Positions 11,759-28,254 of a stretch of 28,254 nucleotides of DNA are shown here, in pieces. This stretch comes from a virus (Duplodnaviria > Caudoviricetes), in the IMG/VR virus record IMGVR_UViG_3300031460_000007, positions 1 to 28,254 of that record; one strand, given 5' to 3'. The notes below the pieces were generated by a model that worked only from the letters and a program-made list of their open reading frames with translations, had not been told where the DNA came from and did not search any database. Position numbers and translations under genes: made by a program. Within the stretch, counting starts at the first letter, position 1. Each line of letters starts with the position of its first letter.

Positions 11759-14721
11759 GCCGCACTCACCCTCTGTATCGCCCCGGTCAATTTATCGAGG
11801 AAAGCGGCCTCGCCGACGCCGTAGTTGTTGACGTTGATGGTGCTCTGTGTCGTGCTCGAACTTGCACCGCCCCCGCCGCTATTGCCGTCCGGGATCTGAT
11901 AGCCACCCGCCCCGCCCGGCGCGTAGGGGTGGAGACTGCCGTCCTTGCCGAGGTAGAGCATGGGGTTCGGACCCGGCCCCGCGTAGTCGGCCGGCTGCCC
12001 GGACGGGGTCGGCGGCAGCGCGCCCGCGCCGTCGCCGTACCCGGAGTCGACGGTACGATCGTGCGTCGGGCCGGGGATCGCGCCCGCGCCGTCGCCGTTG
12101 GGGTTGTCCCCGTTCGGATTGTCGCCGTTCGGGTTGTCGCCGTTGGGGTTGTCCCCGTTCGGATTGTCGTCCTGCGTGCCGCCGCTCGTCGGGCGCATCC
12201 AGATCGGCGTCTGCCCGAACTGCCCCGACGCGGCGATCTCGGCGTTGATCGCCTTGACGGAGGTCAGCAGGGTATTGGCCTCGGTGACCTGGCCCTGCCA
12301 GAAGATCAGGGACTCGCGCGCCGCCGTGATCGATTCGCCGTCCGCCGCCTGGCGGTCCTGCCAGAATTGCGCGGTCGCGGTCGCCACCTCCTGCAAGTCC
12401 ACGATCCGCTGGTTGTCGTCGTCGTGGCGCACCCTGGCCGCGTTGGTCACCGTGTCGATGACCTTCTGACTGTCCTCGATCTGGCGTTGAAAGCCCGCCT
12501 GCACCGCCGCATTGTGCGCGGTCTGCGCGGTGATCTGCGCTTGTAGGGATTGCGTCTGCGCGGCGCTGGCGTCGCTCGCCGCTTTCGCCTTGTCCGCGAT
12601 CCCCTTCTGTGCCTGGGATAGGCCGTAGTTCTCGACCGTGGCGCGCTCGCGCTCTAGCGCAATCTGCGGCTTGGTATTGCGCTCCTCTTGCGCCCGCTCG
12701 CGGCGCAGGGTCGCGGCCTCGCGCAGATCGTTGGTGTCGCGCGACTTGCCGATCTCCGCTAGCCGCTCATCGATCGCGAGGAACTTCACGTCGCGCTGGT
12801 GTTCGAGTTGCCCGACGATCTGGTTATTGAGGTCGATCTGGCGCTGTAGCTCGTCGTTCTGTGATTTGTAGCCGAGCGCGACCGTCGCCGCCGACTCCTG
12901 CACGCTTTTGAGTTCGGCATTGAGCGGGACCAGCGCGGCCACGCCCGCCGCCGCCGCGTCCTTCTGCGCGAAGCCGAGCGCCTTCTGCGCCTCGGTCAGC
13001 CCCCGGATGTTCTCCGCTTCGGCCTTGTCCGCTTCGCTCTGGTTGTGCTGTGCCTCGGTGATCCCGCGCTGCAATTCGCGGTTTTCGCGCGTCGCTTGCG
13101 CGGTGTCCGCGCGCTGCTGTGCTTCGAGCGCATGGATGTCGGCGGTCACCTGCTTGACGCGCAGTTTGTCGGCGGCGAGCGCCTGATAGTCGGCGACCAG
13201 TTCCTTGACCTGTTGCGTCTCGCCGCCCAACGCCTCGGAGATGTCCGCCCACGTCGCCTCGGTCACACCGCCGATCTGGGTTATTTCTGTGGCAAGCCGC
13301 GCAAATGCCGGGAGATAGGCCCGCTCCCAATCGACATCGACCTTGCCGGTCGGGCTCATCCCCTTCATCGCCTCTTCAACGACTTTCTTGAGGTCGTCGA
13401 ACATCGTGATACCGTCCGGCGTCATCCCCTGCACGTAGGCGGTGAGCACATCGGAACCGTAGCCCTTGGCCTTGGCGGCGGCGGCGGGGTCGTCCAGTCC
13501 GGCGGCGGCGGCGTCGGGGATTTTCTTCGCGGCGTCCTTGACCGCCGCCGCGCCCGCGTCGATGCTCGCCTGGGTGTGGCCGATCTGCTCATCGAGCCAC
13601 TTGTTCATCGGGTCGTCGGCGGCGCGATCGTTGGGGATGTCGCGCAGCAGTTCGAGGAAGCCCTTACGGGTATTGAGCGCCCACTCGTAGGTCTTCCGCT
13701 GGGTCGCGTCGAGTGCGTCGCCATACGCCCCGAACACCTTGGGCAGCATCCCGACGATACTGTTCTCGTCTTTCAGCGCGGGGATCAGCGTGCTATTGAT
13801 GTTCTCCGCGAAGTGCGCGCCCACCTTCGCCAGTTCCGCCATCGCGGGCATCAGCAGGGTGCCAACGGTGATCTTCAACCCCTCGAACGCCTCTTGCATG
13901 TCCTTGTGCGCGAGGGTGTAGGTGACGACATCGTGCAGGTTACTGCCGGTCAGCGTCAGCCCGAGCTCCTTGGCCTTCGCGCTCAGTTCGGTGATCCCCT
14001 CGCTGCCCTGATTCAGGACGAGGAGCATATCCTTGCCGCCCTTGCCAAACAGCGACATCGCCAGCGACGTCTTCTCCTGGCCATTCGACAGCTCCTTGAA
14101 TTTGTCGGCGACTTTCAGCAGGGTGTCGTCCATCGGCAGGAGTTTGCCGTGCGCATCGTGGAAGTCCACGCCCAACTGCTTCATCGAGTCGGAGAACTTC
14201 TTGCCGCCCGTTATCCCTTCGTCGGCGGCGAGTTGGTAGCCGCCCATCTGCTTACTGAACAGCCCGAGTTCCTTGCTGGCGTCCGCGCCGTTCACCCCGA
14301 AACGGGCGAACACGGAGATCAGCGCGCTGGTCGTCTCGGCGGACATCCCCGTTTCGCGCGAGAGTTTCAGCGTTTCCTTGCCGAGTTCCATCGTGGCCTC
14401 GACCGCGCTATGCCCCGCGAGCGCGAGCGCCCCGAATCCGGCGGTCGCGGCGGCGGCGGGCGTGACGAGCGCGGCCAGCCCACCGCCCGCGCCGAGTTCG
14501 GTCGCGGCGGTGCCGAGCATCCCCGCGCCACCCCCGACCATCCCGCCCAGCTTTTCCAGGTTCAGACCGGAGGCGGTCGAGGCGAGTTCGATCAACTTGG
14601 CTTGCAAGCCCTCGAACGAGTGTTCGAGCATCCCGACCTGGGCCTCGGTCTTCTGGAAGTCGGCCCGCGCGTTCGAGCCGTCTCCCACAGTTTCTACACG
14701 GAGTTGCGTCTTGTTAGACAT
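11755..14721 (-). CDS. Tape measure protein, about 988 aa
   Basis: Longest ORF, Ala/Gly-rich and helical, AMSLFGKGGKDML motif, coiled coils, follows the tube and chaperone genes. Confidence 0.9.
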   Translation of the reverse strand: MSNKTQLRVETVGDGSNARADFQKTEAQVGMLEHSFEGLQAKLIELASTASGLNLEKLGGMVGGGAGMLGTAATELGAGGGLAALVTPAAAATAGFGALALAGHSAVEATMELGKETLKLSRETGMSAETTSALISVFARFGVNGADASKELGLFSKQMGGYQLAADEGITGGKKFSDSMKQLGVDFHDAHGKLLPMDDTLLKVADKFKELSNGQEKTSLAMSLFGKGGKDMLLVLNQGSEGITELSAKAKELGLTLTGSNLHDVVTYTLAHKDMQEAFEGLKITVGTLLMPAMAELAKVGAHFAENINSTLIPALKDENSIVGMLPKVFGAYGDALDATQRKTYEWALNTRKGFLELLRDIPNDRAADDPMNKWLDEQIGHTQASIDAGAAAVKDAAKKIPDAAAAGLDDPAAAAKAKGYGSDVLTAYVQGMTPDGITMFDDLKKVVEEAMKGMSPTGKVDVDWERAYLPAFARLATEITQIGGVTEATWADISEALGGETQQVKELVADYQALAADKLRVKQVTADIHALEAQQRADTAQATRENRELQRGITEAQHNQSEADKAEAENIRGLTEAQKALGFAQKDAAAAGVAALVPLNAELKSVQESAATVALGYKSQNDELQRQIDLNNQIVGQLEHQRDVKFLAIDERLAEIGKSRDTNDLREAATLRRERAQEERNTKPQIALERERATVENYGLSQAQKGIADKAKAASDASAAQTQSLQAQITAQTAHNAAVQAGFQRQIEDSQKVIDTVTNAARVRHDDDNQRIVDLQEVATATAQFWQDRQAADGESITAARESLIFWQGQVTEANTLLTSVKAINAEIAASGQFGQTPIWMRPTSGGTQDDNPNGDNPNGDNPNGDNPNGDNPNGDGAGAIPGPTHDRTVDSGYGDGAGALPPTPSGQPADYAGPGPNPMLYLGKDGSLHPYAPGGAGGYQIPDGNSGGGGASSSTTQSTINVNNYGVGEAAFLDKLTGAIQRVSAA
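12094..12168. repeat. 15-nt tandem repeat x5 encoding (DNPNG)5
   Basis: Five units in A-B-C-A-B order differing only at synonymous positions. Confidence 0.9.
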
Positions 14722-14938
14722 CGACACCCCCGAGCGTCAGGTCGATGTCGAGGACGTGCAGTGCGCAGACAGCGCCCCAGGTGCGGGTGCGGTCCTCGCG
14801 GCTGGCCGCGATCCAGTACAGCCCCGCTTGCAGCGCCAGCGTGGGCGCGGCGAAGTCCACGGCCAGGAGATTCAGCCCGGTCGCCTGCTCGATGGCGACC
14901 GCCTCCCCCACGGTCAGGCTGTTCGGGTCGAGCCGCAT
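14714..14938 (-). CDS. Tail assembly chaperone, 74 aa
   Basis: LTVGEAVAIEQATG...LYWIAASR pattern; immediately before the TMP; GGAGG SD. Confidence 0.65.
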   Translation of the reverse strand: MRLDPNSLTVGEAVAIEQATGLNLLAVDFAAPTLALQAGLYWIAASREDRTRTWGAVCALHVLDIDLTLGGVDV

Positions 14939-15466
14939 CTAGCCCTCCGTGTGATTGGCGTTGACGGTACGCGCCAGGAACCGTTCGAGCGACTCCGCGT
15001 AAGCGTCGATGATCTTCGGGACCGCCGCGCGGATCGTGGGGTAAAAGAAATACCCGGCGCTCCCGCCGCCCAGTCGCGGTGAGGCGGGCGGGAACTGCTT
15101 GTGGCGGATCGAGCCGAACTCGTAGCCGACCATCCATCCTTTCGTGCGCGCGGTCGAGCCGTAGAGGATCGCGCTGCTCGTCTGCGTCGCCACCGCGCGC
15201 ACGCTCGCCACCGCGTCGGCCCAGTGCTGCTTCGAGTGGCCCGCCCGTGCGTTGTAGCCACTCGTCGGCTTGTGCGCCGCCGCCGCCGCGCGCACGGGCG
15301 GGACCAGCACCTCCTCCACCACACGCTTATTCGTGTCGCGCAACTCGCCCGGCAGCCCCGCGTCGAGGTCACGGAGGAGTTTGCGCAGGTCTTTCATCCC
15401 CACGACTTTCAGCGCGAGGTTCGTGGTCCTGACGGTCCCGGCGCGCGGCGGGCGCGGTGCGCTCAT
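14939..15466 (-). CDS. HK97 gp10-like tail completion/neck protein, 175 aa
   Basis: VVGMKDLRKLLR...YEFGS...YFFYPTIR pattern, basic composition. Confidence 0.7.
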   Translation of the reverse strand: MSAPRPPRAGTVRTTNLALKVVGMKDLRKLLRDLDAGLPGELRDTNKRVVEEVLVPPVRAAAAAHKPTSGYNARAGHSKQHWADAVASVRAVATQTSSAILYGSTARTKGWMVGYEFGSIRHKQFPPASPRLGGGSAGYFFYPTIRAAVPKIIDAYAESLERFLARTVNANHTEG

Positions 15467-15498
15467 GCTGCTCCCTCGTTACGGCGTCGTGTCAAGCA

Positions 15499-16449
15499 TC
15501 AAGGAGCGCTGTCAGCTGTTTGATACGCCAGCGTGATCAGCGGGCTGCCCGGCGTCAGGAGCGCCTTGAACGGGATCGTCTGGCGCACGAGGTCGGAACC
15601 GGCGATCGCGGGGTTGGCCCCGGTATACTCGATGGCCGGGATCGTGGTCGTCAGGATGCTCGCGCCGTTGGTGTGCGTCATCGTCAGCGCGGCGACCGCG
15701 CCGCTGATGAATTTGTTGTAGACGGTCATATCCTCGAACTCTTTGTCGAGTTGGCCCGTGACCGCGTGCTCGCCGTTGGCGATCGGCTGCGACTTCTGAT
15801 TGCCGAGGTAGCGCCGGTCCATCGCCATCGCCCGCGTGCCCGTGATCTGCACGGTGCGGAGGTTGGCCGAGACGCCATCGAGCGAGATCGCCGCGTCGAG
15901 GAACGCCAGCGGGGCATTGGCGGCGGGGTAGGACGCGACCGCGAGCGCCGAGGCCACGTCGTTGATGTTGGTGAAGTCGAAGGTCAGGCGGAGCTTCAGG
16001 TTCTGGTCCATCTGCTGATCGAGCATCCAGGTATGGATTTTGCCGCCGGTGTAGTTGAAGGGCACGACGACGCCGTTCGTCTGCGGCTTGCCGACCTGCA
16101 CGGTCAGCGACGACCCTTGCAAGCCGACGCCATCCGGGGTCGCGGTGTGGGTGAACGGTGCGGCGGCCCCCGCCGTGACGATCGTGCCGAGCATGTTCTT
16201 GAGCAGGATACCCATGCCCGACGCCATGAAATCCACTTCGATCTGGCCGTTATAGTTTTTGATGTAGGCGCGGCGGCGGGTGGTGCGGACGAACTGATCG
16301 CCCAGTCCGCGCGTCTGCAACGACGGACGATCGGGGACGATCCCCTCCGTGAGGAACTCCAGGAAACGGGTGGGGGGGGTGAACACCCCGTACCCCACGC
16401 CCTCTTGTGCTATTCCCACTTGTGAACTTAGTCCACTCCCAAATGGCAT
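15499..16449 (-). CDS. Major tail tube protein, 316 aa
   Basis: MPFGSGLSSQVGIAQE...YG...PTRFLEF start typical of siphophage tube proteins; GGGAGGGG SD before ATG 16449. Confidence 0.85.
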   Translation of the reverse strand: MPFGSGLSSQVGIAQEGVGYGVFTPPTRFLEFLTEGIVPDRPSLQTRGLGDQFVRTTRRRAYIKNYNGQIEVDFMASGMGILLKNMLGTIVTAGAAAPFTHTATPDGVGLQGSSLTVQVGKPQTNGVVVPFNYTGGKIHTWMLDQQMDQNLKLRLTFDFTNINDVASALAVASYPAANAPLAFLDAAISLDGVSANLRTVQITGTRAMAMDRRYLGNQKSQPIANGEHAVTGQLDKEFEDMTVYNKFISGAVAALTMTHTNGASILTTTIPAIEYTGANPAIAGSDLVRQTIPFKALLTPGSPLITLAYQTADSAP

Positions 16450-16549
16450 TCTACAGCCCTCCCATGCTATACTTTTGGCAACAGAAAGCCGCGCCGGTGC
16501 TGCAAACACCGCGCGGCGCGACACCCCGAACTCGTGTCAGGAGTTCCGA
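16444..16549 (+). promoter_or_regulatory. HNH promoter and structured 5' leader, copy A
   Basis: TGGCAT (16444-49), TGcTATACT (16465-73), hairpin 16488-16517, GCGAC, SD-covering stem gaactc/gagttc. Confidence 0.75.
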
Positions 16550-17407
16550 ATGCCCCGCAAGTATACGCCGCCCGCGCCCCGCTGCTGCGAGCAATGCGGC
16601 CAAGCCTTCACCCCGAAGCGCAACCGTCACGACCAAGCCCCGCAACGCTTTTGCAGCCGTGCTTGTCGCGGTGCCAGCCAACGACGCACCGTCACTGCGG
16701 TGTGCGCCAGTTGCGGGGTGGATTTCGTCCCCGTCACCAGCGAGCGCGCCCGTGGCGGCGGTCTGTACTGCGGCACCGCGTGTTACCACACCGCCCAACG
16801 CACTACCATCGAACTGACGTGCGCCCACTGCGAACGGGTATTCACCCGCACACCCTCGACGGTCGGGCGATTTTGCTCCCATACGTGCTACAACCTGTCG
16901 CGGAAGGTTGCGCTCGTTTGCCCGCGCTGTGGCGAGACGTTCTACCGCAAGGCAAGCCAGACGGGAACGGCCCGGTATTGCTCCCGTGCGTGCAAGGAGC
17001 GCGAAACGCCCGCCGAGACGGCGGCGCGCTTCTGGTCCCAAGTGGACAAGTCGGGCGAATGCTGGCTGTGGAAAGGCAGTGTGATCCACTCCGGCTACGG
17101 ACGATTTACCGCAGACGGCAAGCAGACCTCCGCGCACCGTTGGTCGTACCAACACGCCTATGGCCCGTTGGCTGAAGGCCTGCTCGCCTGCCACAGTTGT
17201 GACACTCCCCGCTGCGTCAACCCTGCCCATCTGTTCCCCGGCACTCATGCCACCAACACCGACGATATGGTCAGGAAGGAACGCAACGTGCGCGGTAGCC
17301 TCTGCCACACGGCGAAGTTGCGCGTTGCAGACGTTCACGCTATTCGTGGCGCTTACGCACGCGGCGAACGCACCCAACGTCAACTCGCCACCCATTACGG
17401 GGTGTGA
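16550..17407 (+). CDS. Free-standing HNH endonuclease with four N-terminal Cys4 zinc-finger repeats, antisense to the operon; C-terminal HTH cut by a TGA (frame continues to 17458)
   Basis: CxxC...(F/Y)C(S/G)xxC x4; RFWSQVDKSGECWLW...GYG...AHRWSY...HSCDTPRCVNPAHL...N; AGGAG SD before ATG 16550. Confidence 0.9.
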   Translation: MPRKYTPPAPRCCEQCGQAFTPKRNRHDQAPQRFCSRACRGASQRRTVTAVCASCGVDFVPVTSERARGGGLYCGTACYHTAQRTTIELTCAHCERVFTRTPSTVGRFCSHTCYNLSRKVALVCPRCGETFYRKASQTGTARYCSRACKERETPAETAARFWSQVDKSGECWLWKGSVIHSGYGRFTADGKQTSAHRWSYQHAYGPLAEGLLACHSCDTPRCVNPAHLFPGTHATNTDDMVRKERNVRGSLCHTAKLRVADVHAIRGAYARGERTQRQLATHYGV

Positions 17408-17454
17408 CCTGAACTGATCGGGCGTGTTGTCCGGCGCGAAACTTGGCGTCACGT

Positions 17455-17793
17455 TTAGTTACCCCCTGTCTGTGGTAGCGCGACCGGGGCCACGGGCGGC
17501 ACATACGGCACCGCCTCGGCGGGCGGGGCCGGTGGCACGACGATCTGCCCGGTCTGCGGATCGACCGCCGCGACCGGGATGCTCTGCTGCGCCTCGGCGA
17601 TCGGCTCGGCGGCCTTGCCGACCGCCTGCCAGTCCGCCTGCAACGTCAACGCGGCGGCCAGGTCGAGCGGTACTTCGATGACGCCGTTCTGCGGCACCTC
17701 GCCCGGCAAGCCCAATTCTTCGAGCGCGGGGATGAATACCCCGTCCTGGAACGGCCCGACATAGCGGATGCGGGCCTTTGTCTCATCGGCCAT
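17455..17793 (-). CDS. Hypothetical Pro-rich protein preceding the tail tube, 112 aa
   Basis: AAGGAGG SD; IRYVGP...GV.IP pattern; synteny. Confidence 0.7.
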   Translation of the reverse strand: MADETKARIRYVGPFQDGVFIPALEELGLPGEVPQNGVIEVPLDLAAALTLQADWQAVGKAAEPIAEAQQSIPVAAVDPQTGQIVVPPAPPAEAVPYVPPVAPVALPQTGGN

Positions 17794-17803
17794 CGTCTCC
17801 TCC

Positions 17804-18277
17804 TTAGCTCGTGAGTTCGGTGTACACGTCGATCCTGATCTCCAGCGTGGCCCACCTGCCGTTATCGGTCATGCCCTGCGTCAGATTGGCGCTCGCCAGT
17901 TGCGTGCGGTAGACCGAACGCTGCATCGTGTAATTCGTCCGTAGCTCGTCCTCCACGACCGCCAGGATCGCGTAGGCCCGCTGGCGCGCGGCGTCCGCGA
18001 CCGCCTCGGAGCCATCCGCGAGGTCCGCGCCCGCCTGCAGGATGAAGATGCCGCCCCGGATGGTGTACTGCTCGGTGCGCCGCCGGTTGCCGAGCGCGCC
18101 CCACGCCTGCGTGTCGTCGCTCCCGTATAGCTCCACCATCTCGAGCGGCAGCGGATCGCCCGCCGGGGCGGCGAACGCCAGCACGGTCGCGGTCGTCGGA
18201 TTGCCCGCCAGTCGGACATTCAGCCGATCGCGCAGCGTCGCCATGAACGCCGGGACGGTGCTGGTCGTCGTTGCCAT
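17804..18277 (-). CDS. Tail terminator-like protein, 157 aa
   Basis: Size and position; RAYAILAVVEDELR helix followed by terminal beta strands. Confidence 0.65.
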   Translation of the reverse strand: MATTTSTVPAFMATLRDRLNVRLAGNPTTATVLAFAAPAGDPLPLEMVELYGSDDTQAWGALGNRRRTEQYTIRGGIFILQAGADLADGSEAVADAARQRAYAILAVVEDELRTNYTMQRSVYRTQLASANLTQGMTDNGRWATLEIRIDVYTELTS

Positions 18278-19158
18278 CAGGCGATCCCCACGGTCGATTC
18301 CATGTAATCGGAGAGCACCGCGTCGACGTTGGGTATCCCGAACCAGCTATTCCGGCCCATGCCGGGGGTCGCCATGCGGAACGTGCCCGCCCCGCTCGGA
18401 TCGGACCAGCTCGTCGTGCGCTCGCTGATGTTGGTCAGCACCAGTTGGTTGACAACCGCGATCAGCGCCGCGCGCCGGATCGGTTCGGGCGGTTGCGCGT
18501 AGCCGTACTCGTAGCCGACCTGCACGGTGAGGCTCGGCAGGCGTAACTCGCTGTACAGGCTGGTGCCGTAATACATGCTGCCGCGCGTGACGATCCCCGT
18601 GGCGAGGTCGCTGTCGAGCGCGGCCAGTTGGGCGGCGCTGTACGGGACGTAGGCCGACGCGCCCGGTGCGCGCGTGGCGATCGAGCGGATCGCCGTGATC
18701 GGCTGGTCGGGCAATTGGAACTCGAACCAGTCCGCGCCCGAGATGGCGCGGAAGCGGTAGCGCGGGACGAACGAGACTTTGCAGATACGCTCGAACCGCT
18801 CGGTGATCAGCGTCCGCGCCGCGAGGATCGCCGCGTCGGGGAAGTTGGTCGCGTTGGCAAGCTGCCGCTTGTCGAACGCCCGCGCGTCCGCGACCTCGAA
18901 GAGGGTCGCCCCGACGAGCTCCACCCGCGCGCTCAGAGTGCCGAGCGATTGCGAGGTGAACACGCCGACCAGGGTGTTCAGTTGCGCCGTGTCGAGCAGC
19001 GTCATGGCGTAGCTGGCGACGTTACCGGCGACCGTGGCGAGCGCGTTGGTGTAGACCGGGACGCCATCGAGCGTCGTCACCGTGACCGTCACCGCGCCGG
19101 GCGGGGCCGGATAGGTGACGCTGAGGGTGGCCGGGGTAGCGATCAGGCTCATCGTCAT
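18277..19158 (-). CDS. Head-tail adaptor (gp6/gp15-like) with N-terminal beta-rich extension, 293 aa
   Basis: ITERFERIC...VGYEYGYAQPPEPIRRAAL...VDAVLSDY motif. Confidence 0.75.
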   Translation of the reverse strand: MTMSLIATPATLSVTYPAPPGAVTVTVTTLDGVPVYTNALATVAGNVASYAMTLLDTAQLNTLVGVFTSQSLGTLSARVELVGATLFEVADARAFDKRQLANATNFPDAAILAARTLITERFERICKVSFVPRYRFRAISGADWFEFQLPDQPITAIRSIATRAPGASAYVPYSAAQLAALDSDLATGIVTRGSMYYGTSLYSELRLPSLTVQVGYEYGYAQPPEPIRRAALIAVVNQLVLTNISERTTSWSDPSGAGTFRMATPGMGRNSWFGIPNVDAVLSDYMESTVGIA

Positions 19159-19361
19159 CCGCGCCGCTCCGTGCGTGCGCTGACGGCGGCGGTATCCACG
19201 ACCGCGCCGCCAGTCGCCCGCTTGACGACGCGCGCGGGCGTGTCCGCATACTCGGCGCGACCGACCGCGACGAGCGCCCGCGCCTCCTCAGCGGTGGCCT
19301 CGCGTACCGCGCCCGGTACGTCCGTCGTCCCCGCCTGTCGCGCCAGTATGCGGATCAGCAT
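19155..19361 (-). CDS. Small conserved-type post-capsid protein, 68 aa
   Basis: PGAVRE...EEARALVAVGRAEY pattern; GGAGG SD. Confidence 0.7.
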   Translation of the reverse strand: MLIRILARQAGTTDVPGAVREATAEEARALVAVGRAEYADTPARVVKRATGGAVVDTAAVSARTERRG

Positions 19362-19374
19362 CCTCGTACCCTCC

Positions 19375-19803
19375 TTAGACCGGGCGATCGTTCGGGGTGT
19401 TGACCGCCGCCTCGTTCACGGCCTGCTGCTGCTCGATCGGCGGGGCGACCGGCGCGACCGGCACCTCGACGTGGGTGATGTTCTGCTTGGCGGCGGCGTC
19501 ATACGCGGCCTGATACGCCTTCGCGGCCTCGGCGCGGGCCTGCTCGCGCAGGTGGGAGACGCCGCCCGGTGCCGCCGCCTGGGCGACGAGCGCGGCGGCG
19601 GCACCATCGCGCGCCCCGGCGGCGGTCGCGTCCGCGACGACGCGGGCGTTGGCGACCTCCTCGGCGAACTGGTTGGGGAACGTGTCGAATCCCTGATGGC
19701 TCACCTGCTCCACGATCGTCTGCGACGCGGTCACCGCGTCTACCGGGGTATTGACCACTTCCAGCACACCGTCCGGGTTCTGTGGGGTGTCGTTGCGTGC
19801 CAT
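19375..19803 (-). CDS. Hypothetical Ala-rich protein, 142 aa
   Basis: GGAGG SD, strong GC3 bias, follows the capsid gene. Confidence 0.7.
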   Translation of the reverse strand: MARNDTPQNPDGVLEVVNTPVDAVTASQTIVEQVSHQGFDTFPNQFAEEVANARVVADATAAGARDGAAAALVAQAAAPGGVSHLREQARAEAAKAYQAAYDAAAKQNITHVEVPVAPVAPPIEQQQAVNEAAVNTPNDRPV

Positions 19804-19826
19804 CTGCTCTGTCCTCCGTGTTAGGT

Positions 19827-19853
19827 GCCGCGCGGGACCATTCCCCGCGCGGC
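19827..19853 (-). terminator. Hairpin after the major capsid gene (terminator or mRNA stabiliser)
   Basis: gccgcgcggga-ccat-tccccgcgcggc; no U-tract. Confidence 0.5.
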
Positions 19854-19884
19854 GACTCGTGTTACCAGTCGTGTATTACGCTAA

Positions 19885-21168
19885 CTACGTGGCCGAGTTG
19901 GCATAGTAAACTATCGGGTTGGTGCCCGCGTTTACTAGCGTACCGTCGAGCCGTTCAAAGACAAAAAACCCTGTTTGGAGGTAATCAGCGTAGCGCTCCT
20001 CGAGCCGGATCAGCGTGTTGTCCTTCACGCTGCGAATCCAGTAGTTGGAGAAGTCGCCGTAGAGGATGCTCTTCGCGCTCGCGGTCATCACCGGCATGTC
20101 CTGGTTGATGGTGTAGGGCGCGTTGAGGATGCTCGGCGGCATCCCGCCGATGTTCTGCCCGAGGTCGTAGCCGGGGTTCCACAGCGGGCGGCCCTGGCCG
20201 TCGAGCAGCGCCCGGATCGCGCGCAGCGTCGAGTCGTGGAACATCCACTCCGCGCCGTCGCGGTAGGCCGGATCGACCGCGTGCTGCATGGCCAGGAGGT
20301 TGAGGTACGAGATCGCGGTCGTGTTGCCCACCGCTGCGGTGACGCCCGCCGTGGCCCCGGTGAGGATGCCCTGCGGCTGGCCCGCGCCCGTGCCGCTGGT
20401 CAGGTAGGTGTTCTCCACGCGCCCGAGGCGCTCGCCCGCGATCGAGGCGATGAACGCGGGCAGGTCGAAGTAGCTGTCCTGCAACATCTGCCAGGAGATC
20501 AGGATCAGCTTCGAGGTGAAGGTGTAGGCGTTGAGGGTCTTCGTGGTGAAGACCGGCTCCTGCTCGGTGATCTGGGTGTTCTCCGTGAGTAGCGCGCCCG
20601 CGTTCCCGGTGTCGTTGACCATCGGGATCGGCAGGGGGTTGCCGGTGTCGGTGTTGAACTTGCGCGTCCCGGCCTTGAGCATCCCGCCGTATTGCAGGCG
20701 GGCGCGGGTCAAGATGTCCGCGAACCCTTGCGGGATCAGATAGCCGCCGACCGCGCCAGCGGTGGTACCGAGCGCGGCGCGCTCCTCAATCCGCATCCCC
20801 CGATCGAGCACCATCCGCTGCTCGCGCTCGATGCCGGTCTTGCCGTTGCGGACGTAGCCCCAGAACGCCGCGTCGTACTCCTCCTGGGAGGGCACGACGC
20901 GCGTGTTGCGCCCGGTGACGAGATCGCCACCCGGCAGCATCCGCACGTCCCGATCGACGATCGACAGCTCGCTCTTGCGGTCGGCGTGGCGCTTGACGCG
21001 CTCCAATTCGGCGGTCTTGGCGTCGAGATCGGCTTCCAGTGTGTCGTACCGCTGCGCCTCCTCGGCGGTGAGGCTGCGCTGCCCGTCCGCGCGGGCACCT
21101 TCGAGGATGCCCGTCATGTCCTTCCATGTCACCTGTCGCTGCTCGGCCAGTCGTTTCAGTTCTTCCAC
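19885..21168 (-). CDS. Major capsid protein, HK97 fold with N-terminal delta domain, 427 aa
   Basis: N-terminal coiled coil, GGYLIP, ISWQMLQDS, GTGAGQPQGIL, GRPLW, YGDFSNYWI, ERLDG. Confidence 0.95.
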   Translation of the reverse strand: MEELKRLAEQRQVTWKDMTGILEGARADGQRSLTAEEAQRYDTLEADLDAKTAELERVKRHADRKSELSIVDRDVRMLPGGDLVTGRNTRVVPSQEEYDAAFWGYVRNGKTGIEREQRMVLDRGMRIEERAALGTTAGAVGGYLIPQGFADILTRARLQYGGMLKAGTRKFNTDTGNPLPIPMVNDTGNAGALLTENTQITEQEPVFTTKTLNAYTFTSKLILISWQMLQDSYFDLPAFIASIAGERLGRVENTYLTSGTGAGQPQGILTGATAGVTAAVGNTTAISYLNLLAMQHAVDPAYRDGAEWMFHDSTLRAIRALLDGQGRPLWNPGYDLGQNIGGMPPSILNAPYTINQDMPVMTASAKSILYGDFSNYWIRSVKDNTLIRLEERYADYLQTGFFVFERLDGTLVNAGTNPIVYYANSAT

Positions 21169-21174
21169 GGTGTC

Positions 21175-21268
21175 ATGCTCCTAGTGCGTAGTGCCGCGCG
21201 TTCATCGCGTGGCGGCGGGTCAACAGATCCAGCGCGTACCCGTCCGAGTGGCTTGTCACCGGCTCGGC
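21175..21268 (-). pseudogene. Probable decayed original 3' end of the prohead protease gene
   Basis: Starts with a 13-bp copy of protease sequence; reads AEPVTSHSDGT then, after a 1-nt shift, LDLLTRRHAMNARHYALGA*. Confidence 0.45.
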
Positions 21269-21951
21269 TCTGCATCGGAGTGTGGTTCACACGGCTCCGG
21301 TGTGGGCGTTAGTAGTAGTCGTAGTTGTGCGGGGATGCGGCCTGCGCCGCGCGACAGGTTGCAGGAAGCATGGGCAACAGCGAGATTATTCGCGGTGTGA
21401 TCGCCGCCCTTGCTCACCGGTACGAGATGGTCAAGATGGATGGCTTTCGGGTCAAGTACCCGCTTGCCGCAAATGTGGCAAATCGCCCTGTCCCGCGCGA
21501 TGACTGCTGCCCGGTCAACCTTATCGACTCGCGCAGCGGCCATCTTGCGCGCGCGGTATTGCCCACTAAAGTCGAGGTTCTTCGCGGGGTTCGCCTGTCG
21601 CCATAGACGCTGGTATGCGCGGCGTTCTGCGCGATACGTATCGAGATGAGCAAGCCGACGCGCGCGCGCCTTTGCGCCGAGTTCCGCGCGATAGGTGGCA
21701 TCTTCGTGGTACCGCCGTAGCATTCGCGCCTTGGTCGCGGCGGCATACTGCTTCTTGCGCTCCCGCTCCCGGTCGAGGTTCGCGGCGGCAAATGTCCGCT
21801 TCGCGTGGTCCCGGCAGGACTTGCAACGCGAGTCATAGCCATCGGGCCGCCCGCAATTGCGCGGGAACTCTGCCAGCGACTTGGTTTGCACGCACGCTGT
21901 GCAACGTTTCGTGGTGGGCAAGGTGGGGGCGTGTTGGGTATGATGGTCCAT
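21256..21951 (-). CDS. Free-standing HNH endonuclease with N-terminal zinc finger, 231 aa (frame open to ATG 22062)
   Basis: KRCTAC...EF...DG...CKSC; RDRAICHICG...HLDHLVPVSKGGDHTANNLAVAHASCNLSRG; AGGAGGT SD before ATG 21951. Confidence 0.9.
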   Translation of the reverse strand: MDHHTQHAPTLPTTKRCTACVQTKSLAEFPRNCGRPDGYDSRCKSCRDHAKRTFAAANLDRERERKKQYAAATKARMLRRYHEDATYRAELGAKARARRLAHLDTYRAERRAYQRLWRQANPAKNLDFSGQYRARKMAAARVDKVDRAAVIARDRAICHICGKRVLDPKAIHLDHLVPVSKGGDHTANNLAVAHASCNLSRGAGRIPAQLRLLLTPTPEPCEPHSDAEPSR

Positions 21952-22054
21952 GCCGTACCTCCTGAATAGGTCGGTCGCGCCGGAGGCTGTTTGCAGCAGC
22001 GCTCCGGCACATCTCTGTTCGCCCAAGTATATCATTTTTGGCGTCCCAATGCCA
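21952..22054 (-). promoter_or_regulatory. HNH promoter and structured 5' leader, copy B
   Basis: TGGCAT (22054-49), 17 nt, TATACT with TG extension (22034-26), hairpin 22008-21979, GCGAC, SD-covering stem. Confidence 0.75.
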
Positions 22055-22064
22055 TAAATCATGG

Positions 22065-22886
22065 TTACGCGACCCCCGCAAGATGGACCGGAAGGTCGTA
22101 TTTCACCGCGCCGAGCCGGTACTGACGAGCGGCGGTGCCAAAGTCCCTGCTGCCCTTACTCACCGGCTCGGCGCGGCTTACAAGTTCGGCCAGCGCTGTA
22201 TGGGCGGCTCGCAGCGCGGGCAGGAGGGCTTCATCGGGGGTGGTCGAGGTGGTGAGGGCGCGCACCAACTGACCGCGCTGCTCCTCGGGGAGATCGAGCA
22301 GGCCGAACGCATGGAGGAAGGACCGCGCCTCGCGCGAGCGCAGGCCGATGTCCGTCTCCGCGTAGGCGGGCGTGCTCACGGCGGCCACGTCGTACAGGTT
22401 CACCTCGCGCAGGGTGCGGATCGGCGTCCCCTCGTCCGTCTCGTCCCAGTCGTCCTTGACGGCCTGGAAGGCGAACGACATCTGCGAGATGTTGCCCGCT
22501 TGCATGTTGGTGGCGAGGTCGCGGGCGTAGGTCGTGGGGGCCATCCGCGCGTCGATCAGCAACCCGTCGCCATCGTCGGAGAGGGTGAGGTTCCCGGCGG
22601 CGGTGCGCGCCAGGATGTAGGTGTCGTTGTGATCAATATTGAACGTGACATCGCCACCGTCGCGCAGCGTCTTGGTGAACGCACCGGGCGCGATGACCTC
22701 AATGAAACGCCCCTCCCACAAGTCTTGGAGCGGCTGCGAGCGCACGTCGTAGAGCGCGGCGTGCCCCTGGACCGGGATCGCGCCATCCGCACCCGCCGCG
22801 CGGACTTCGAGGCCCACGGTCGCGGTGCGACGCACCACCTGGGCGCGATTGGCCGCGCGTCGCGCCTGATCGATCAGCGTGCTCAT
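22065..22886 (-). CDS. HK97-type prohead maturation protease, 273 aa
   Basis: GHAALYD, EVIAPGAF, DHND..ILART, QMSFAF, LYDVAAVSTPAYAET. Confidence 0.93.
   Translation of the reverse strand: MSTLIDQARRAANRAQVVRRTATVGLEVRAAGADGAIPVQGHAALYDVRSQPLQDLWEGRFIEVIAPGAFTKTLRDGGDVTFNIDHNDTYILARTAAGNLTLSDDGDGLLIDARMAPTTYARDLATNMQAGNISQMSFAFQAVKDDWDETDEGTPIRTLREVNLYDVAAVSTPAYAETDIGLRSREARSFLHAFGLLDLPEEQRGQLVRALTTSTTPDEALLPALRAAHTALAELVSRAEPVSKGSRDFGTAARQYRLGAVKYDLPVHLAGVA
22106..22176. repeat. Perfect 15-bp inverted repeat with 41-nt spacer inside the protease 3' end
   Basis: ccgcgccgagccggt (22106-20) / accggctcggcgcgg (22162-76). Confidence 0.85.
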
Positions 22887-23137
22887 GTGCGGTACTCCTT
22901 GCTGAAAACGGGCATCAGGTCAGGCGCGACCGCCCCATCTACTACCTCGTTGAATGTCTCCGAGTGCACGAAAAACAGCAGCACGTCGGAAACGGGGTCG
23001 TATGCGGTCCTGAGCAGCTTGGCGTCCTCTGGCATCCCCGAAATGAAGAGCGCATCGCGAAGCGTGGCATCCTGCAATGACACCAGCATCCCGATCAGGA
23101 GAACCGGACGAATACGCAAGATACGATAGCGATTCAT
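22883..23137 (-). CDS. Lower-GC hypothetical protein between portal and protease, 84 aa
   Basis: TGATG and ATGA overlaps; GMPEDAKLL...VHSETF..V.DG..AP. Confidence 0.7.
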   Translation of the reverse strand: MNRYRILRIRPVLLIGMLVSLQDATLRDALFISGMPEDAKLLRTAYDPVSDVLLFFVHSETFNEVVDGAVAPDLMPVFSKEYRT

Positions 23138-24411
23138 CAGTTCACCCCCGTATTGTCCGGAGCGGACCCATCGGCCCCGCCCTGCCCCTGGCCGCCATCG
23201 CCGCCGTTCCCGGCCGGTGTCGGCGCGGGGCCGACGTTGCTGTTCAGCGCGGCCTCGTAGTCGTCCCCGGTCGGGTCATCGATCGGGGCCAGTTGCTCGG
23301 TCGTGCGGATGTCATTCTTGCTGAGCACGCCGATCGTCCGGGCGATCTGGTAGATCTGCCAGCGCTCGATCGCCTTGCCCCGCAGCACGGAGTCGAGGTC
23401 GAACCGCGCGTACCGGTCGGCCACGGGCAGGAGGTCGTCGCTGATCGCCTGCTCGAAGCGCGACAACCACGGGCCGAGCGTGTAGGTGACGAAACCCTGC
23501 TGCTGCTCCTCGAGCCCCTTGCCCCAGGAAGTCGATTTGTCCATGATACCGAGCATGTGGGGCGGCACCCGGAAGAGCGTGGCGATCTCCGTCGCCGAGA
23601 ACTTCATCGTATCGAGGAACTGCGCGTCGCCCGGCGTGAGCCCGGTCGATTGCCAGGTCGCGCCATTGCCAAGGACGCCGACCTTGTGCATGTTCCGCGC
23701 GCCCGCGTGGAGCTTCTGCCAGCGCCGCCCCAGTTCGCTCGCCTGCTGGTCGCTGATCTCCTCCTTGGTCGAGAGGAAACCGGGGACGTGCGACCCCTGC
23801 GCGTAGAAACTCGCCGCGCCCTGCTCCGCGCCCATGCCGATACCGAGCGACTCTTTCGCCTGGGCGATCGGCGATAACCCTTTCAGTCCGTCCACGCCCC
23901 ACGCCGGGATATGGCAGATGTCGGCGGTGGTGAACGTCTCCCGCCCGATGTCGAACACTTTGGCCCCGCTGCGCTCGTCGCGCCGGATCGTCACCTGCTG
24001 CGGGTTGATCGGCCAGAGTTCGGCGAGCGCGCCCGACCGATCGCGCAGCTTGTGGATGTAGGCGTTCCCGTCGAGCAGGCAGTGACCGGCGAGGAGTTCC
24101 CAGAACACCTGCCGGGTCATCTCCGGGTTCGGCTTGCCCCAGATCAGGCGGTCGGCAGGCTGGTGCAACTCCTCGCGGAAATTGCCGCGCCGGTAGACCT
24201 GCAACGGCAACGCGCCGATCCCCTCGGCGATGATCCGCACGCAGGTATAGACCGTGACGTTGCGGAGCGCGGTCGCCTGATTGACGAGCAGGCCGCTATT
24301 GGCGGGGAGTCCCGAATCCGTGCCAAGCACGAGGGCGGCATAGGCATCCGCGCTCGGATTGTTCAGCGAGGATCCCGCGCGGCGCTCCATCATGCGCGTC
24401 AGCACCGTCAT
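23137..24411 (-). CDS. Portal protein, HK97 family, 424 aa
   Basis: VYTCVRIIAE, PNPEMT, GNAY, GLSPI, DAQFL, IATLFRVPPHMLG, NDIRTTE; start MTVLTR at 24411 after GGAG. Confidence 0.95.
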   Translation of the reverse strand: MTVLTRMMERRAGSSLNNPSADAYAALVLGTDSGLPANSGLLVNQATALRNVTVYTCVRIIAEGIGALPLQVYRRGNFREELHQPADRLIWGKPNPEMTRQVFWELLAGHCLLDGNAYIHKLRDRSGALAELWPINPQQVTIRRDERSGAKVFDIGRETFTTADICHIPAWGVDGLKGLSPIAQAKESLGIGMGAEQGAASFYAQGSHVPGFLSTKEEISDQQASELGRRWQKLHAGARNMHKVGVLGNGATWQSTGLTPGDAQFLDTMKFSATEIATLFRVPPHMLGIMDKSTSWGKGLEEQQQGFVTYTLGPWLSRFEQAISDDLLPVADRYARFDLDSVLRGKAIERWQIYQIARTIGVLSKNDIRTTEQLAPIDDPTGDDYEAALNSNVGPAPTPAGNGGDGGQGQGGADGSAPDNTGVN

Positions 24412-24512
24412 CGGCCCATCTCCGGACAAAAGTTTGGGCAAAAATAGGGCAATAAAGTGTCCGCCGCGCCGCCTGCGCCGGGGATATACTGGCACGGTAG
24501 GAAGGAGGAGCG

Positions 24513-24776
24513 ATGATCACGACACGACCGGACTATCTGACCGAGCGCGAGTGGGGCGCGTTCTGCGAGATGTGGCGATGGAAGCGACTCTGCCAACAAT
24601 TGCTTGATAACCCCATGATCGAGCGCAAAGTCGCGTACACACTGATCGACAGTACGATGAAAGAGGCGTGGCGACGGGCGGGCATGACGAAGGGGGTGTG
24701 GCACCATACCGCACAAGAATCTGCATGGCTGATCGCGCTGCACGCCGTACACCTGCCCGACGATGATTTGCTCTGA
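24513..24776 (+). CDS. Antisense-oriented Trp-rich hypothetical protein (moron), 87 aa
   Basis: AGGAAGGAGG SD, TATACT at 24485-90, lower GC than the flanks. Confidence 0.7.
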   Translation: MITTRPDYLTEREWGAFCEMWRWKRLCQQLLDNPMIERKVAYTLIDSTMKEAWRRAGMTKGVWHHTAQESAWLIALHAVHLPDDDLL

Positions 24777-24781
24777 TGCGC

Positions 24782-24970
24782 TCACCGTGGCACCGCCACG
24801 AGCGGCGCGACGTACCAGATCAGGAACGCGCCGAACGCCACCAGCCCGAGCGGCCACGACCACCACGCGGCACCGCTCACCGCGACGAGCCAGCCGAGGA
24901 GTTCGCAGGCGATCGCCGCGAGGGCGCGCACGGCGCTGACACGCGGCACGGCGGGGCGCTCGTCCATCAC
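24782..24970 (-). CDS. Small two-TM membrane protein between TerL and portal
   Basis: ELLGWLVAVSGAAWWSWPLGLVAFGAFLIWY; GTGA overlap with the TerL stop; common at this position. Confidence 0.75.
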   Translation of the reverse strand: MMDERPAVPRVSAVRALAAIACELLGWLVAVSGAAWWSWPLGLVAFGAFLIWYVAPLVAVPR

Positions 24971-26544
24971 GCCCCCGCTTCGTCGTCATCGAAGACCCAG
25001 AACTGCGGCACCTTCGACGGCTCCGCCGGTTTGCCCGCCTCAGCCACGGACATCACCAACGCGATCGGGCCGTCGTTCTCACGGCGGTCGTGCGTCTTGA
25101 CCAGTCGCTGCCCACCACCCGAGACTTGCTTCGCGACCGCGTCGCCCATCTGGCGCGCGAGCGCGGGATCGCCCTCGTGCCCGAGGCGTTGGTCGATGAT
25201 CAGCTCGTAGAGCGCCTGGGTGGGCGGGCACATGCGCGTGTTGGTCTGCGGCATCTCCACCATCGCCACGCCCTCGGCTTCGAGGCTCGCGGCCATCCAG
25301 GTGATAAACGCGGGGTCATACGCCACGGCGGCGAGGTTGCCGCCCCGATGCAACTCCCGGATGTGGTTCTCCACCTCGGCGATCGGCAGCCGCCAGCCGT
25401 CCGCGACCTGGCCGGTGTGCGGGTCGCGCGGCGCGCTCCAGATGCGCGCCTTGATCCTGAGCTGATCGTCCCACCACTGCGCGCAGACGACAGCCGTGCT
25501 GTCCTTCTTGGTGGAGGCATCGACGCCCGCATAGATCGGGCGCTGCAAATCGAACGCGAACGGCGCGATCGCGCAGTCGTGCCACGCGCCGGGCGGTAGC
25601 CACGGCTTCTCGCCGCGCGTCCAGATACCGAGGAAGTAGCGGACGAAGACCTCGCGCGGCTTGCGCTTCCATTGGTCGCGGTAGAACGGCAGATCGACCG
25701 TATGACCGAGCGAGGGATTCGCCTGCGCGACTGCGCGCTCCCACTGTGCCGGGTCTTCGAGGTCGAGCGTCTCGTCCGCCGCGTAGATGCGCGCGTAGAA
25801 CTCGGGATCGCTCAGTTCGCCCTTGATGATTTTCAGCGCCTGCTCGTGGTAGCGCCCGCAGACCGTATCGAGGTCGAATCCCGCCGTGGTGATCATGATC
25901 ACGAGCGGTTCCTGTCGCGCGCCGGTCGCGTTCGTCAGGACGTTGAACAAGCCTTCGCCCTTCGGCCCCTTGAACTCGTGCAGCTCATCGAGTGCGACCA
26001 GGCTCAGGTTTTTGCCGTCGTTGGTGCCGACCGTCGCCGAGTAGCGCGCGATCTTGGCGGCGGGGTTCTCCTTCAGGACGATCTCTTTGGCGTAGCAGGT
26101 GGTCAACGCCGCGAGGTCCGGCGACATCTCGCACATCGCTTTGGCCGCGCCGAAGACAAGATCGGCCTGCTCGTCGCTGTTGGCCGCACAGGCGATCTCC
26201 GGCGATTCCTCGCCATCCGCGACGAGCATGTAGACATCGATCGCGGCGATCAGCTCGGTCTTGCCCTGCTTCTTCGGGATCTCGATGTACGCCCAGCGAT
26301 AGCGCCGCCGCCCCGTGACCGGATCGATCTCGAAGAGTTCGTAGAGGAGCTTCTTCTCCCACGGCAGCAGGACGAACGGCTTGCTGCGCCAGCGTCCCTT
26401 GGTGTGGACGCAGTACCGCTCGATGAAGTCGATCACATGCTGGCCGCGCGTGGGGTATTCGCGCACGGTGCCGTCCGGCATCCGCTGGCGGATCGTGCGC
26501 GTGGCGACCGGCGCGGCGGTCGGGCGCTCCATGACCACCATCAA
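24967..26544 (-). CDS. terL: Terminase large subunit
   Basis: Walker A IPKKQGKT, Walker B VALDELH, ITTAG coupling motif, ANPSLG, nuclease GVDAS..KDSTA and NDGPIA. Confidence 0.96.
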   Translation of the reverse strand: MMVVMERPTAAPVATRTIRQRMPDGTVREYPTRGQHVIDFIERYCVHTKGRWRSKPFVLLPWEKKLLYELFEIDPVTGRRRYRWAYIEIPKKQGKTELIAAIDVYMLVADGEESPEIACAANSDEQADLVFGAAKAMCEMSPDLAALTTCYAKEIVLKENPAAKIARYSATVGTNDGKNLSLVALDELHEFKGPKGEGLFNVLTNATGARQEPLVIMITTAGFDLDTVCGRYHEQALKIIKGELSDPEFYARIYAADETLDLEDPAQWERAVAQANPSLGHTVDLPFYRDQWKRKPREVFVRYFLGIWTRGEKPWLPPGAWHDCAIAPFAFDLQRPIYAGVDASTKKDSTAVVCAQWWDDQLRIKARIWSAPRDPHTGQVADGWRLPIAEVENHIRELHRGGNLAAVAYDPAFITWMAASLEAEGVAMVEMPQTNTRMCPPTQALYELIIDQRLGHEGDPALARQMGDAVAKQVSGGGQRLVKTHDRRENDGPIALVMSVAEAGKPAEPSKVPQFWVFDDDEAGA

Positions 26545-27047
26545 GACACCTCGTCGATGTCGATAATCGCGTCCACCTCGCGCGCCAGTTGCCCGCGCAG
26601 GTCGCCCGTCGTCTTGGTGTTGACGTAGGCGTTGGTGGTCACGCCGAGACGCATCCGCGCCATCGGGAGGATGCCGAGCTGGTCGCGCAGCTTCTCGATC
26701 TCGCGGTTCAACTCTTTGAGGATAACGAGTTTGGGGTTGACCACCCGCTGCCCCATCGAGCCCTCAACCGTGGGATGGGCCAGCACACCGCCCTGGATCG
26801 TGTCGCGCTTGCCAAGCAAGGTGAAATAGCGCCCGATGTCATAGTGGTCGGCGCCCGTGACCATCTGCGCGACCGGATCGGCCCAGAAGGCCTCCCAGAC
26901 GACGCGGTAGGCCTGGGAGAGTTTCGGCGGGTACGCGGGGAGCGGTCGACGCGCGTCGGGCAGCACGAGCGCCAGGGTGGACGAGCCGGTGTAGCGGCTG
27001 CCCTTCCCCTGCAATTGTTCCGGGCTCTTCTGGCGCTGATTCGCCAC
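26541..27047 (-). CDS. terS: Terminase small subunit, P27-like
   Basis: PPKLS...W, VVNP, QLGILPMARMRL; immediately upstream of terL. Confidence 0.88.
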   Translation of the reverse strand: MANQRQKSPEQLQGKGSRYTGSSTLALVLPDARRPLPAYPPKLSQAYRVVWEAFWADPVAQMVTGADHYDIGRYFTLLGKRDTIQGGVLAHPTVEGSMGQRVVNPKLVILKELNREIEKLRDQLGILPMARMRLGVTTNAYVNTKTTGDLRGQLAREVDAIIDIDEVS

Positions 27048-27328
27048 TACGCGATCTCCATCGGACTGCGGCGGTGCTTACGCAGGTGGCACGTATGGCA
27101 GAGCGTGATCCCGTTATCCAGCGCATCCCCGCCACCATCGGCCAGGGCGATCATATGGTCGGCTTCCAGTCGCTCGCGCGACCCGCACACGACGCATCGC
27201 CAGCCGTCGCGGTCCTTGACACAGAGCGCCCACTCGGTACGGCTGTAGCTCGTCCGATACTTCGCCCGGCACAGGGAACAGCGCGATCCCCGTCCGATCA
27301 GGACGTTGCAGCCAAGACAGCGCCGCAT
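27047..27328 (-). CDS. Packaging-associated HNH endonuclease (HK97 gp74-like position), 93 aa
   Basis: RDGWRCVVCG...ADHMIALADGG...NGITLCHTCH..KH; adjacent to terS. Confidence 0.88.
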   Translation of the reverse strand: MRRCLGCNVLIGRGSRCSLCRAKYRTSYSRTEWALCVKDRDGWRCVVCGSRERLEADHMIALADGGGDALDNGITLCHTCHLRKHRRSPMEIA

Positions 27329-27371
27329 CAGGCAGACCCCCCGGAAATCAGTCGGCGATAGCGGACGCATG

Positions 27372-27445
27372 AAAAGTTGAGGGCGGCGGTCCGGGAGTGT
27401 ACGTACACTTGCCGACTTTTGCCCTCCCCCCCGGTGGTACCCCCG
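27372..27445. other. Putative cos/packaging-initiation region
   Basis: G/C runs, perfect palindrome AGTGTACGTACACT (27396-27409), AAAAGTYG inverted pair, GACCGCCGCCCTC core; non-coding just upstream of HNH-terS. Confidence 0.5.
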
Positions 27446-27461
27446 CGCCCGCCGCGTACGC

Positions 27462-27501
27462 AAAAACGCCCCGCCATCGATCTTGCGATCGGAGCGGGGC
27501 G
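27462..27501 (-). terminator. Intrinsic terminator just downstream of the late promoter
   Basis: cgccccgc-tc-cgatc-gcaa-gatcg-atg-gcggggcg followed by TTTTTG. Confidence 0.8.
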
Positions 27502-27531
27502 CCGAATGGCCCGGTGTATCCAGTGACTTAC

Positions 27532-27560
27532 AGTCTAGACTACGGGGGTTAGTCTGTCAA
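27532..27560 (-). promoter_or_regulatory. Probable late promoter with palindromic spacer
   Basis: TTGACA (27560-55), 17 nt, TAGACT (27537-32); AGACTA-N7-TAGTCT inverted repeat. Confidence 0.8.
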
Positions 27561-27763
27561 GCCACATGCACCGCGTTCTCCTTGCTGCATGACTCGCACC
27601 ACACCCTGATGCGCTGCGCCTCGGTCAGGCCCTCGATCAGCAGGGTGCGCCCGGCATGACGTGACCAATACGCACCGGGCGCGACGATGCCAAGCATGTG
27701 GTTGCAACGCTGGCACTTAACCGGCTGCCCGATCGGGGTCGGCGTGGTCGGTCGGTCCGTCAT
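27557..27763 (-). CDS. Small zinc-ribbon protein, Mu Com-like, 68 aa
   Basis: VKCQRCNHMLG...IRVWCESCSKEN; GGAGG SD before ATG 27763. Confidence 0.7.
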   Translation of the reverse strand: MTDRPTTPTPIGQPVKCQRCNHMLGIVAPGAYWSRHAGRTLLIEGLTEAQRIRVWCESCSKENAVHVA

Positions 27764-27776
27764 CGCCCGCCTCCCC

Positions 27777-28249: not shown

Positions 28250-28254
28250 ATCCT

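Follow-up and report, generated by a model that had tools for sequence, protein, structure and literature searches.

Predicted sar-like antisense RNAs over the starts of two inserted HNH endonuclease genes in an uncultured phage

Introduction

Why do two dissimilar nuclease genes on opposite strands of one phage genome begin with the same promoter and the same hairpin? The question arises from IMG/VR record IMGVR_UViG_3300031460_000007 (Caudoviricetes), a linear virus record from an uncultured phage, of which we analysed a fragment of 28,254 nucleotides (nt), here called the window; all coordinates are window positions 1-28,254. Its head and tail genes lie on the minus strand, and two genes for HNH endonucleases, HNH-A (plus strand) and HNH-B (minus strand), are inserted among them. 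Each is led by a 100-nt unit made up of a promoter, a hairpin (P1), a second stem and a Shine-Dalgarno (SD) sequence. A first-pass annotation had taken the unit for a portable structured cis-regulatory RNA. Our analysis suggests that both genes are probably capped from the opposite strand, by an antisense RNA resembling sar of phage P22: transcribed from a reverse promoter, it would pair with the ribosome-binding site (RBS), shut off translation and terminate at P1.

Results

Two copies of one control unit

Direct reading of the sequence confirmed that both copies contain the unit as first described. In copy A (plus strand), ATGGCA (16443-48) and an extended -10 box, TG-c-TATACT (ending at 16473), are followed by AACAGA (16480-85), the hairpin (16488-16517), GCGAC (16518-22), AGGAG (16539-43) and the ATG of HNH-A at 16550. 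Copy B (minus strand) has ATGGCA at 22055-50, TG-a-TATACT ending at 22026, AACAGA at 22019-14, the hairpin at 22008-21979, then GCGAC, AGGAG at 21963-59 and the ATG of HNH-B at 21951. An 11-mer common to both copies occurs exactly twice. With one mismatch allowed there are three matches where 0.26 are expected, and none of 100 shuffles reaches three. The downstream proteins belong to different HNH families, as had been proposed, and cannot be aligned (best E 0.23).

Sense promoter A (16443..16473, plus) is predicted from its sequence; its 19-nt spacer lies outside the 16-18 nt range of our promoter scan, which did not list it. Sense promoter B (22026..22055, minus; 18-nt spacer) was predicted by promoter scan. 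ATGGCA fits better as the -35 box than the TGGCAT put forward earlier, although TGGCAT in copy A is indeed the reverse complement of the start of the tail-tube gene; sense promoter A overlaps the SD and start codon of that gene on the other strand. The ATGnTA common to both sense promoters (16464-16469; 22030-22035) also reads as a reverse -10 box, so these promoters may be bidirectional. The same overlap is seen in 7 of 23 members of the wider family described below, and the reverse box within sense promoter A would point at the tail-tube start.

The P1 geometry first described (7 base pairs (bp), a bulged C, 4 bp and a CUGCAAA loop) is the predicted minimum-energy fold of both copies and beats shuffled sequences (z -2.7 and -2.8). 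The four compensated base pairs between the copies can be read from the sequence. A second stem is present as well. It had been said to cover the SD, which on the mRNA strand holds only in part: the stem is predicted at -7.5 kcal/mol in both copies and leaves the SD about half unpaired (probability unpaired 0.46 in A, 0.40 in B).

A reverse -10 box inside the first codons

Both genes carry a promoter signature on the opposite strand of their coding sequence. In HNH-A, a TATACT box (16560..16565, minus) lies inside codons 4-6. In HNH-B, a predicted promoter, TGGGCA-18-TATGAT (21915..21944, plus), lies within the first 13 codons; it is one of three promoter-like sites in 14000-28254, where 2.1 are expected by chance. 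As sequence signatures, the antisense -10 boxes stand at +11 (A) and +8 (B) of the target start, and sense and antisense promoter signatures converge from about 90 nt apart. Four of 35 hand-listed starts in the window (a few of them off by a few bases) carry a reverse box, both HNH genes among them.

The same position is occupied in most hairpin-led genes elsewhere. A reverse TAnnnT at +5..+14 was found in 21 of 25 dereplicated genes, compared with 24 of 239 control genes (6/145 for high-GC controls); two doubtful rows were kept in this count, L024 as a positive and L161 as a miss. Deeper in the same genes the box occurs in 0-1 of 25, and its same-strand mirror in none of 25. The sense -10 box is less consistent, being found in 14 of 23 members. 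We then fixed the prediction beforehand and examined 30 Streptomyces loci matched by a model of the unit that ends at the predicted start site, so that the -10 box lies outside it. The reverse box was present in 24 of the 28 non-duplicate matches (background, 0-1/28).

A reverse promoter in codons 3-13, with its -10 box in codons 3-6, would likely drive an antisense RNA of 69-75 nt from about the start codon. Antisense RNA A (16479..16553, minus; 75 nt) would fold into two stem-loops (predicted -37.2 kcal/mol, including G.U pairs possible on this strand only) and be complementary to HNH-A at its SD and AUG. Antisense RNA B (21951..22019, plus; 69 nt) would likewise fold into two stem-loops (-31.5 kcal/mol), the first of which has the anti-SD in its loop. 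Both would end at P1, the shared hairpin serving as terminator. On the minus strand, P1 of copy A (16488..16517) is a 13-bp stem followed by UUUCUGUUG; P1 of copy B (21979..22008) is a predicted terminator on the plus strand with a weaker tail (ACAUCUCUGUU). The shared AACAGA thus reads as the terminator's U-rich tail in antisense, and GCGAC as the stem end plus a 3-nt linker. Across members, U accounts for 3-8 of 10 nt on the antisense side of P1, versus 0-3 on the other side.

The anti-SD is predicted to lie in or beside the 5' loop of the antisense RNA (probability unpaired 0.49 in A, 0.76 in B). Exposed there, it would nucleate pairing with the RBS, which would likely block ribosome loading and repress translation of the nuclease. 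Predicted duplex energies, which ignore intramolecular structure, are -171 and -159 kcal/mol for the cognate pairs and -81 and -71 kcal/mol for the crossed ones.

Late transcription would also meet P1 of copy A immediately before the tail-tube gene. At 27560-27460 (minus), upstream of the genes for the packaging HNH protein and the terminase, a promoter (TTGACA-17-TAGACT) is followed by a hairpin and T-tract, an arrangement that we take to resemble a late antitermination leader; such a leader would allow read-through of P1 toward the tail tube.

Strand asymmetry of the second stem

The two strands were compared in 21 rows, namely the 25 above minus L024, L161, and L386 and L461, which are without the box. 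The second stem is more stable in antisense in 19 of the 21. Over these rows it has 35 G.U pairs in antisense versus 10 in sense; 200 shuffles gave 9.9 on average and never more than 16. The distance from the -10 box to the first base of the antisense 5' stem is 7-8 nt in 15 of the 19 rows with a confident stem, and it is held more tightly to the stem start (standard deviation, 1.4 nt) than to the AUG (3.4 nt). In an alignment of 54 copies, compensatory changes occur in six of seven second-stem pairs, and 45 of the 54 have U.G at one pair; this alignment was fitted to the model, which inflates covariation counts.

As modelled, the fold of the element fits the opposite strand better than it fits a riboswitch-like leader. 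Because the G.U pairs that preserve the second stem can form only on the opposite strand, and because a reverse promoter lies in the first codons, a riboswitch-like or protein-binding cis leader is not supported as the main function. What survives of the first reading is a portable structured RNA that travels with unrelated nucleases, and an antisense target had been among its options.

Comparison with sar and other antisense systems

In the GenBank record of P22, sar occupies 15021-15090, the terminator spans 15021-58, and the promoter lies at +7..+35 of ant. The accessible text of PMC7968456 and PMC13397905 describes sar as blocking the ant RBS. As in P22, the promoter of our unit lies inside the first codons of the target (-10 box at +7 in P22; +11 and +8 here), and the predicted RNA shares with sar a length of about 70 nt from the start codon, two stem-loops of which the 3' one is the terminator, and an anti-RBS in its 5' part. 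The Psar -10 hexamer is that of antisense promoter A, and the sar terminator loop is identical to the family core at nine of ten positions. The target differs: sar acts on the ant antirepressor in the mnt-arc-sar-ant region, whereas this unit leads free-standing endonucleases, recombinases and small unassigned genes. Its P1 differs from the sar terminator in having a conserved bulge.

RF00262 (gathering cut-off, 43 bits) matched neither copy at E <= 10, with P22 as positive control scoring 97.8 bits. Conversely, our models R1 and R2 miss P22 sar, and the sole matches of model R3 in L490 and L566 fall exactly on sar and on a sar homologue, respectively, both non-significantly (12.2 bits, E 1.1; 12.9 bits, E 0.78). 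The unit probably works like sar, yet it is not a member of RF00262.

The homologue in L566, a record that exactly matches the probe of PMC6582537, has the same layout, with a reverse -10 box at +7. The accessible part of that paper reports that this mycobacterial prophage RNA is expressed on Northern blots; it comes from an actinobacterial prophage and, as predicted for the unit, runs on the opposite strand between two genes. It differs in preceding a signal-peptide protein and in scoring 39.3 bits with RF00262. Two further relatives in mechanism, IS10 RNA-OUT (PMC7968456) and IS200 art200, are likewise cis-antisense RNAs; they lie opposite the 5' end of the mRNA for a mobility enzyme and block ribosome binding, as the available portions of the literature present them. 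Their targets are insertion-sequence transposases, and they show no sequence or model match to the unit in our Rfam scans. Small RNAs next to integrases have also been reported in S. pyogenes prophages, in the part of PMC4829319 that is accessible.

The element was suspected to be new to Rfam, and this stands. Scans of the window region gave no match to it, and scans that also took in 40 member loci matched it to no family, riboswitch, cis-regulatory and HEARO families included. The single antisense match among the member loci was weak (ctRNA_pGA1 on L475, E 0.59).

The likeness to T4-family homing endonucleases (I-TevI, I-TevII, I-TevIII, segB, Aeh1 mobE) invoked by the first-pass annotation proved to be a loose one. 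There too expression is restrained at translation initiation, but through a cis hairpin with a late promoter inside it that allows escape (accessible text of PMC2988022); in the present unit both hairpins are downstream of the sense promoter, and the coding sequence contains a reverse promoter signature.

Distribution beyond the window

With a tight pattern, a further copy turned up ahead of an unrelated HNH gene (L002); one coding sequence accounted for the remaining three of the four matches. The P1 pattern alone occurs at no fewer than 121 loci. Across all loci collected, 69 distinct hairpins passed a stem filter: 28 are followed by an SD and an open reading frame (ORF), 22 by a T-tract, and 19 fall in neither class. 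Most T-tract cases appear, on the other strand, to be leaders of integrase-like genes (a label read from their translations) with the loop motif flipped. Examples are L370, L373, L382, L417, L439 and L475. Several of these have the reverse -10 box upstream of the SD, which would leave the RBS outside the predicted RNA.

At least 19 phage endonuclease genes are led by the unit. Among 30 downstream proteins scanned, 19 are endonucleases (HNH, endonuclease VII-type and others), two are integrases, one is a replication initiator with a helix-turn-helix (HTH) domain assignment, and eight have no family. Model R2 matches 33 of 121 sampled Streptomyces genomes, where 26 downstream proteins comprise three serine recombinases, two HATPase_c_2 proteins, one DUF6415 protein and 20 without a family. 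Since the genes led by the unit span endonucleases, integrases, recombinases and others, it is not specific to HNH genes. Nor does it follow the protein family, because seven protein relatives of HNH-A have no match to the motif upstream; they also gave no match to model R1, whose structure was mis-registered and which R2 and R3 superseded. The P1 loop sequence is conserved in phage members and varies in Streptomyces.

Other searches added little. An exact-loop scan gave one new copy (L564) among 29 distinct stretches. An SD-anchored pattern yielded mostly chance or coding matches: among the matches listed, three of 117 from viral contigs and 15 of 240 from genomes and metagenomes passed the hairpin filter, about three of the latter looking like leaders.

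Two placements are worth recording. In Gordonia phage Spooky, the annotated start of gene 31 (L492:19985-20563) lies upstream, so that the gene runs through the module, which itself indicates a GTG start at 20063; another, weaker model match is found at 19879-19943. At Streptomyces loci L497, L500, L501 and L504, the module sits between a small ORF and a divergent small regulator, GntR-like by eye, a placement that echoes the mnt/arc layout.

The inserted cassettes

Cassette A (16369..17455) consists of variant codons 1-27 of the tail-tube gene, the sense promoter, the leader and HNH-A. It is flanked by the tail-tube gene (15499..16449, minus; Pfam Phage_tube_2). Contigs about 98-99% identical to the window skip 16369-17455 in four of four runs and have 81 other letters in its place, which matches tail-tube codons 1-27 in length; cassette A therefore carries its own variant tail-tube start. 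Cassette B (21272..22160, ends approximate, from the gap relative to phage L491) consists of a replacement 3' end for the protease gene, the sense promoter, the leader and HNH-B, and is flanked by a short direct repeat. Lying in the 3' end of the prohead protease gene (22065..22886, minus), it supplies the last ~28 codons and thereby a new C-terminus, and leaves the old one stranded downstream of HNH-B (21173..21271, minus), where the translation is that of the C-terminus of the L491 protease. In our alignment the related phage L491 (blocks 77-91% identical) is without both cassettes; cassette B is present in the near-identical relatives that skip cassette A. Judged by these comparisons, both cassettes are recent insertions, as expected of free-standing homing endonucleases, with cleavage putative.

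HNH-A (16550..17407, plus; 285 residues) combines zinc-finger repeats with an HNH_3-type nuclease. It ends at a TGA 16 codons ahead of the next in-frame stop, within a likely C-terminal HTH (17405-17458). The 16 codons beyond look like the remainder of that HTH, and HNH-A may be decaying. HNH-B (21256..21951, minus; 231 residues) is a PF01844-type HNH nuclease. A third insertion missing from L491 (24413-24782), at the start of the portal gene, contains a reverse-oriented ORF encoding 87 residues (24513-24776) with its own SD and TATACT box.

Elsewhere in the window, two 76%-identical near-consensus promoters, TTGACA-17-TATTAT, each precede a small ORF (580-687 and 1046-1153, minus). They contain an inverted repeat, likely an operator, and an excisionase-like HTH gene (99-329) lies downstream. 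Six tandem 15-nt repeats (12076-12195, DNPNG-like) near the C-terminus of the likely tape-measure protein are absent from L491. The capsid protein gave no guide to the host, its best match being 35% identical.

Discussion

Several observations weigh against an antisense cap. Antisense RNAs A and B are so far predictions from sequence. The +5..+14 window was picked after the data had been seen, and many hairpin-led members are related actinophage cassettes. Antisense -35 boxes show no clear consensus across members, and copy A has none; terminator tails are often weak, as is the U-tract of copy B. The two copies in the window fit the register of the family poorly: the spacing in copy A is 4 nt, copy B has no stem above a probability of 0.5, and the strand preference of its second stem is small (-8.4 vs -7.5 kcal/mol). 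Alignment A4 was fitted to the model, and the statistics of P1 are circular because P1 was the search pattern. The loop motif is found on either strand depending on the member, which the antisense model leaves unexplained. Finally, the SD is partly paired on the mRNA strand too (mean probability unpaired, 0.46 over 20 rows), so a contribution in cis remains.

The alternative that survives best, though we judge it improbable, is that the reverse promoter acts mainly by transcriptional interference or re-supplies a neighbouring phage gene, the short RNA being a by-product. The reverse promoter of copy A is aimed at the tail-tube gene, both copies and 7 of 23 members have a second reverse -10 box overlapping the sense one, and T4 endonuclease genes are described in the accessible text of PMC2988022 as embedding host-gene promoters. 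The reverse promoter of copy B, in contrast, aims into the 3' end of an opposite-sense gene. A terminator-like hairpin stands within 60-70 nt of the reverse promoter, and a by-product would have no use for a 5' stem that covaries and keeps its register to the start site.

Even more doubtful is an mRNA leader acting as a cis switch, in which a protein or ligand, such as a Com-like protein, opens a structure that hides the SD. In its favour, both hairpins also form in the predicted mRNA fold, with the SD paired about half of the time, and the loop is conserved in phage members. Yet the asymmetry of the second stem favours antisense, the reverse -10 box would be left without explanation, and the loop motif flips strand in integrase leaders and varies in Streptomyces. 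Com-like activation in particular, raised in the first-pass annotation, found no support: the Com motif of Mu Com/mom activation, CC(N2-3)GAG (accessible part of PMC6483171), is missing from the P1 loop. The candidate Com-like ORF (67 residues, 27557-27760, minus, two CxxC pairs, before the late promoter) has no Pfam match and a weak PHROG match of no assigned function.

Least probable is that the hairpin serves cassette mobility as a signal in the DNA itself, marking an end or a recognition site, or that it belongs to a HEARO- or OMEGA-like guide RNA for the nuclease: it travels with both insertions, but lies 100-200 nt inside the cassette ends and not at them, the unit heads diverse gene types and Rfam gives no HEARO match, so that these readings were rejected, as was Com activation for its absent motif.

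If an antisense cap is at work, its purpose might, speculatively, be to keep the nuclease repressed at steady state or high copy number while permitting a burst at first DNA entry. A broader proposal, which we think unlikely, though somewhat less so than the alternatives above, is that the unit represents a large uncatalogued family of sar-like antisense caps, a plug-in safety module swapped among mobile genes independently of the protein. The conserved terminator loop (UGUU-N-CAGCA or its complement, on either strand) would then be a shared signal at which a host factor docks or through which cassettes cross-pair. Were this so, the RNA pool of a resident element could damp incoming homing endonucleases and integrases, and so time homing and integration.

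Mechanisms of this class were already known in the 1980s. A literature search found no account of the module on homing endonucleases, most subscription papers lying outside its coverage. In the viral structured-RNA catalogue of PMC10690425, six supplementary files hold no match to the motif; three others may contain it.

The unit is common, yet Rfam does not see it. Genes that it leads are constrained in their first codons, and their starts can be miscalled, as in gene 31 of Gordonia phage Spooky. If the antisense reading is right, control of the P22 sar type would be a general, unannotated restraint on free-standing homing endonucleases and recombinases, and a solution distinct from the cis hairpin of T4.

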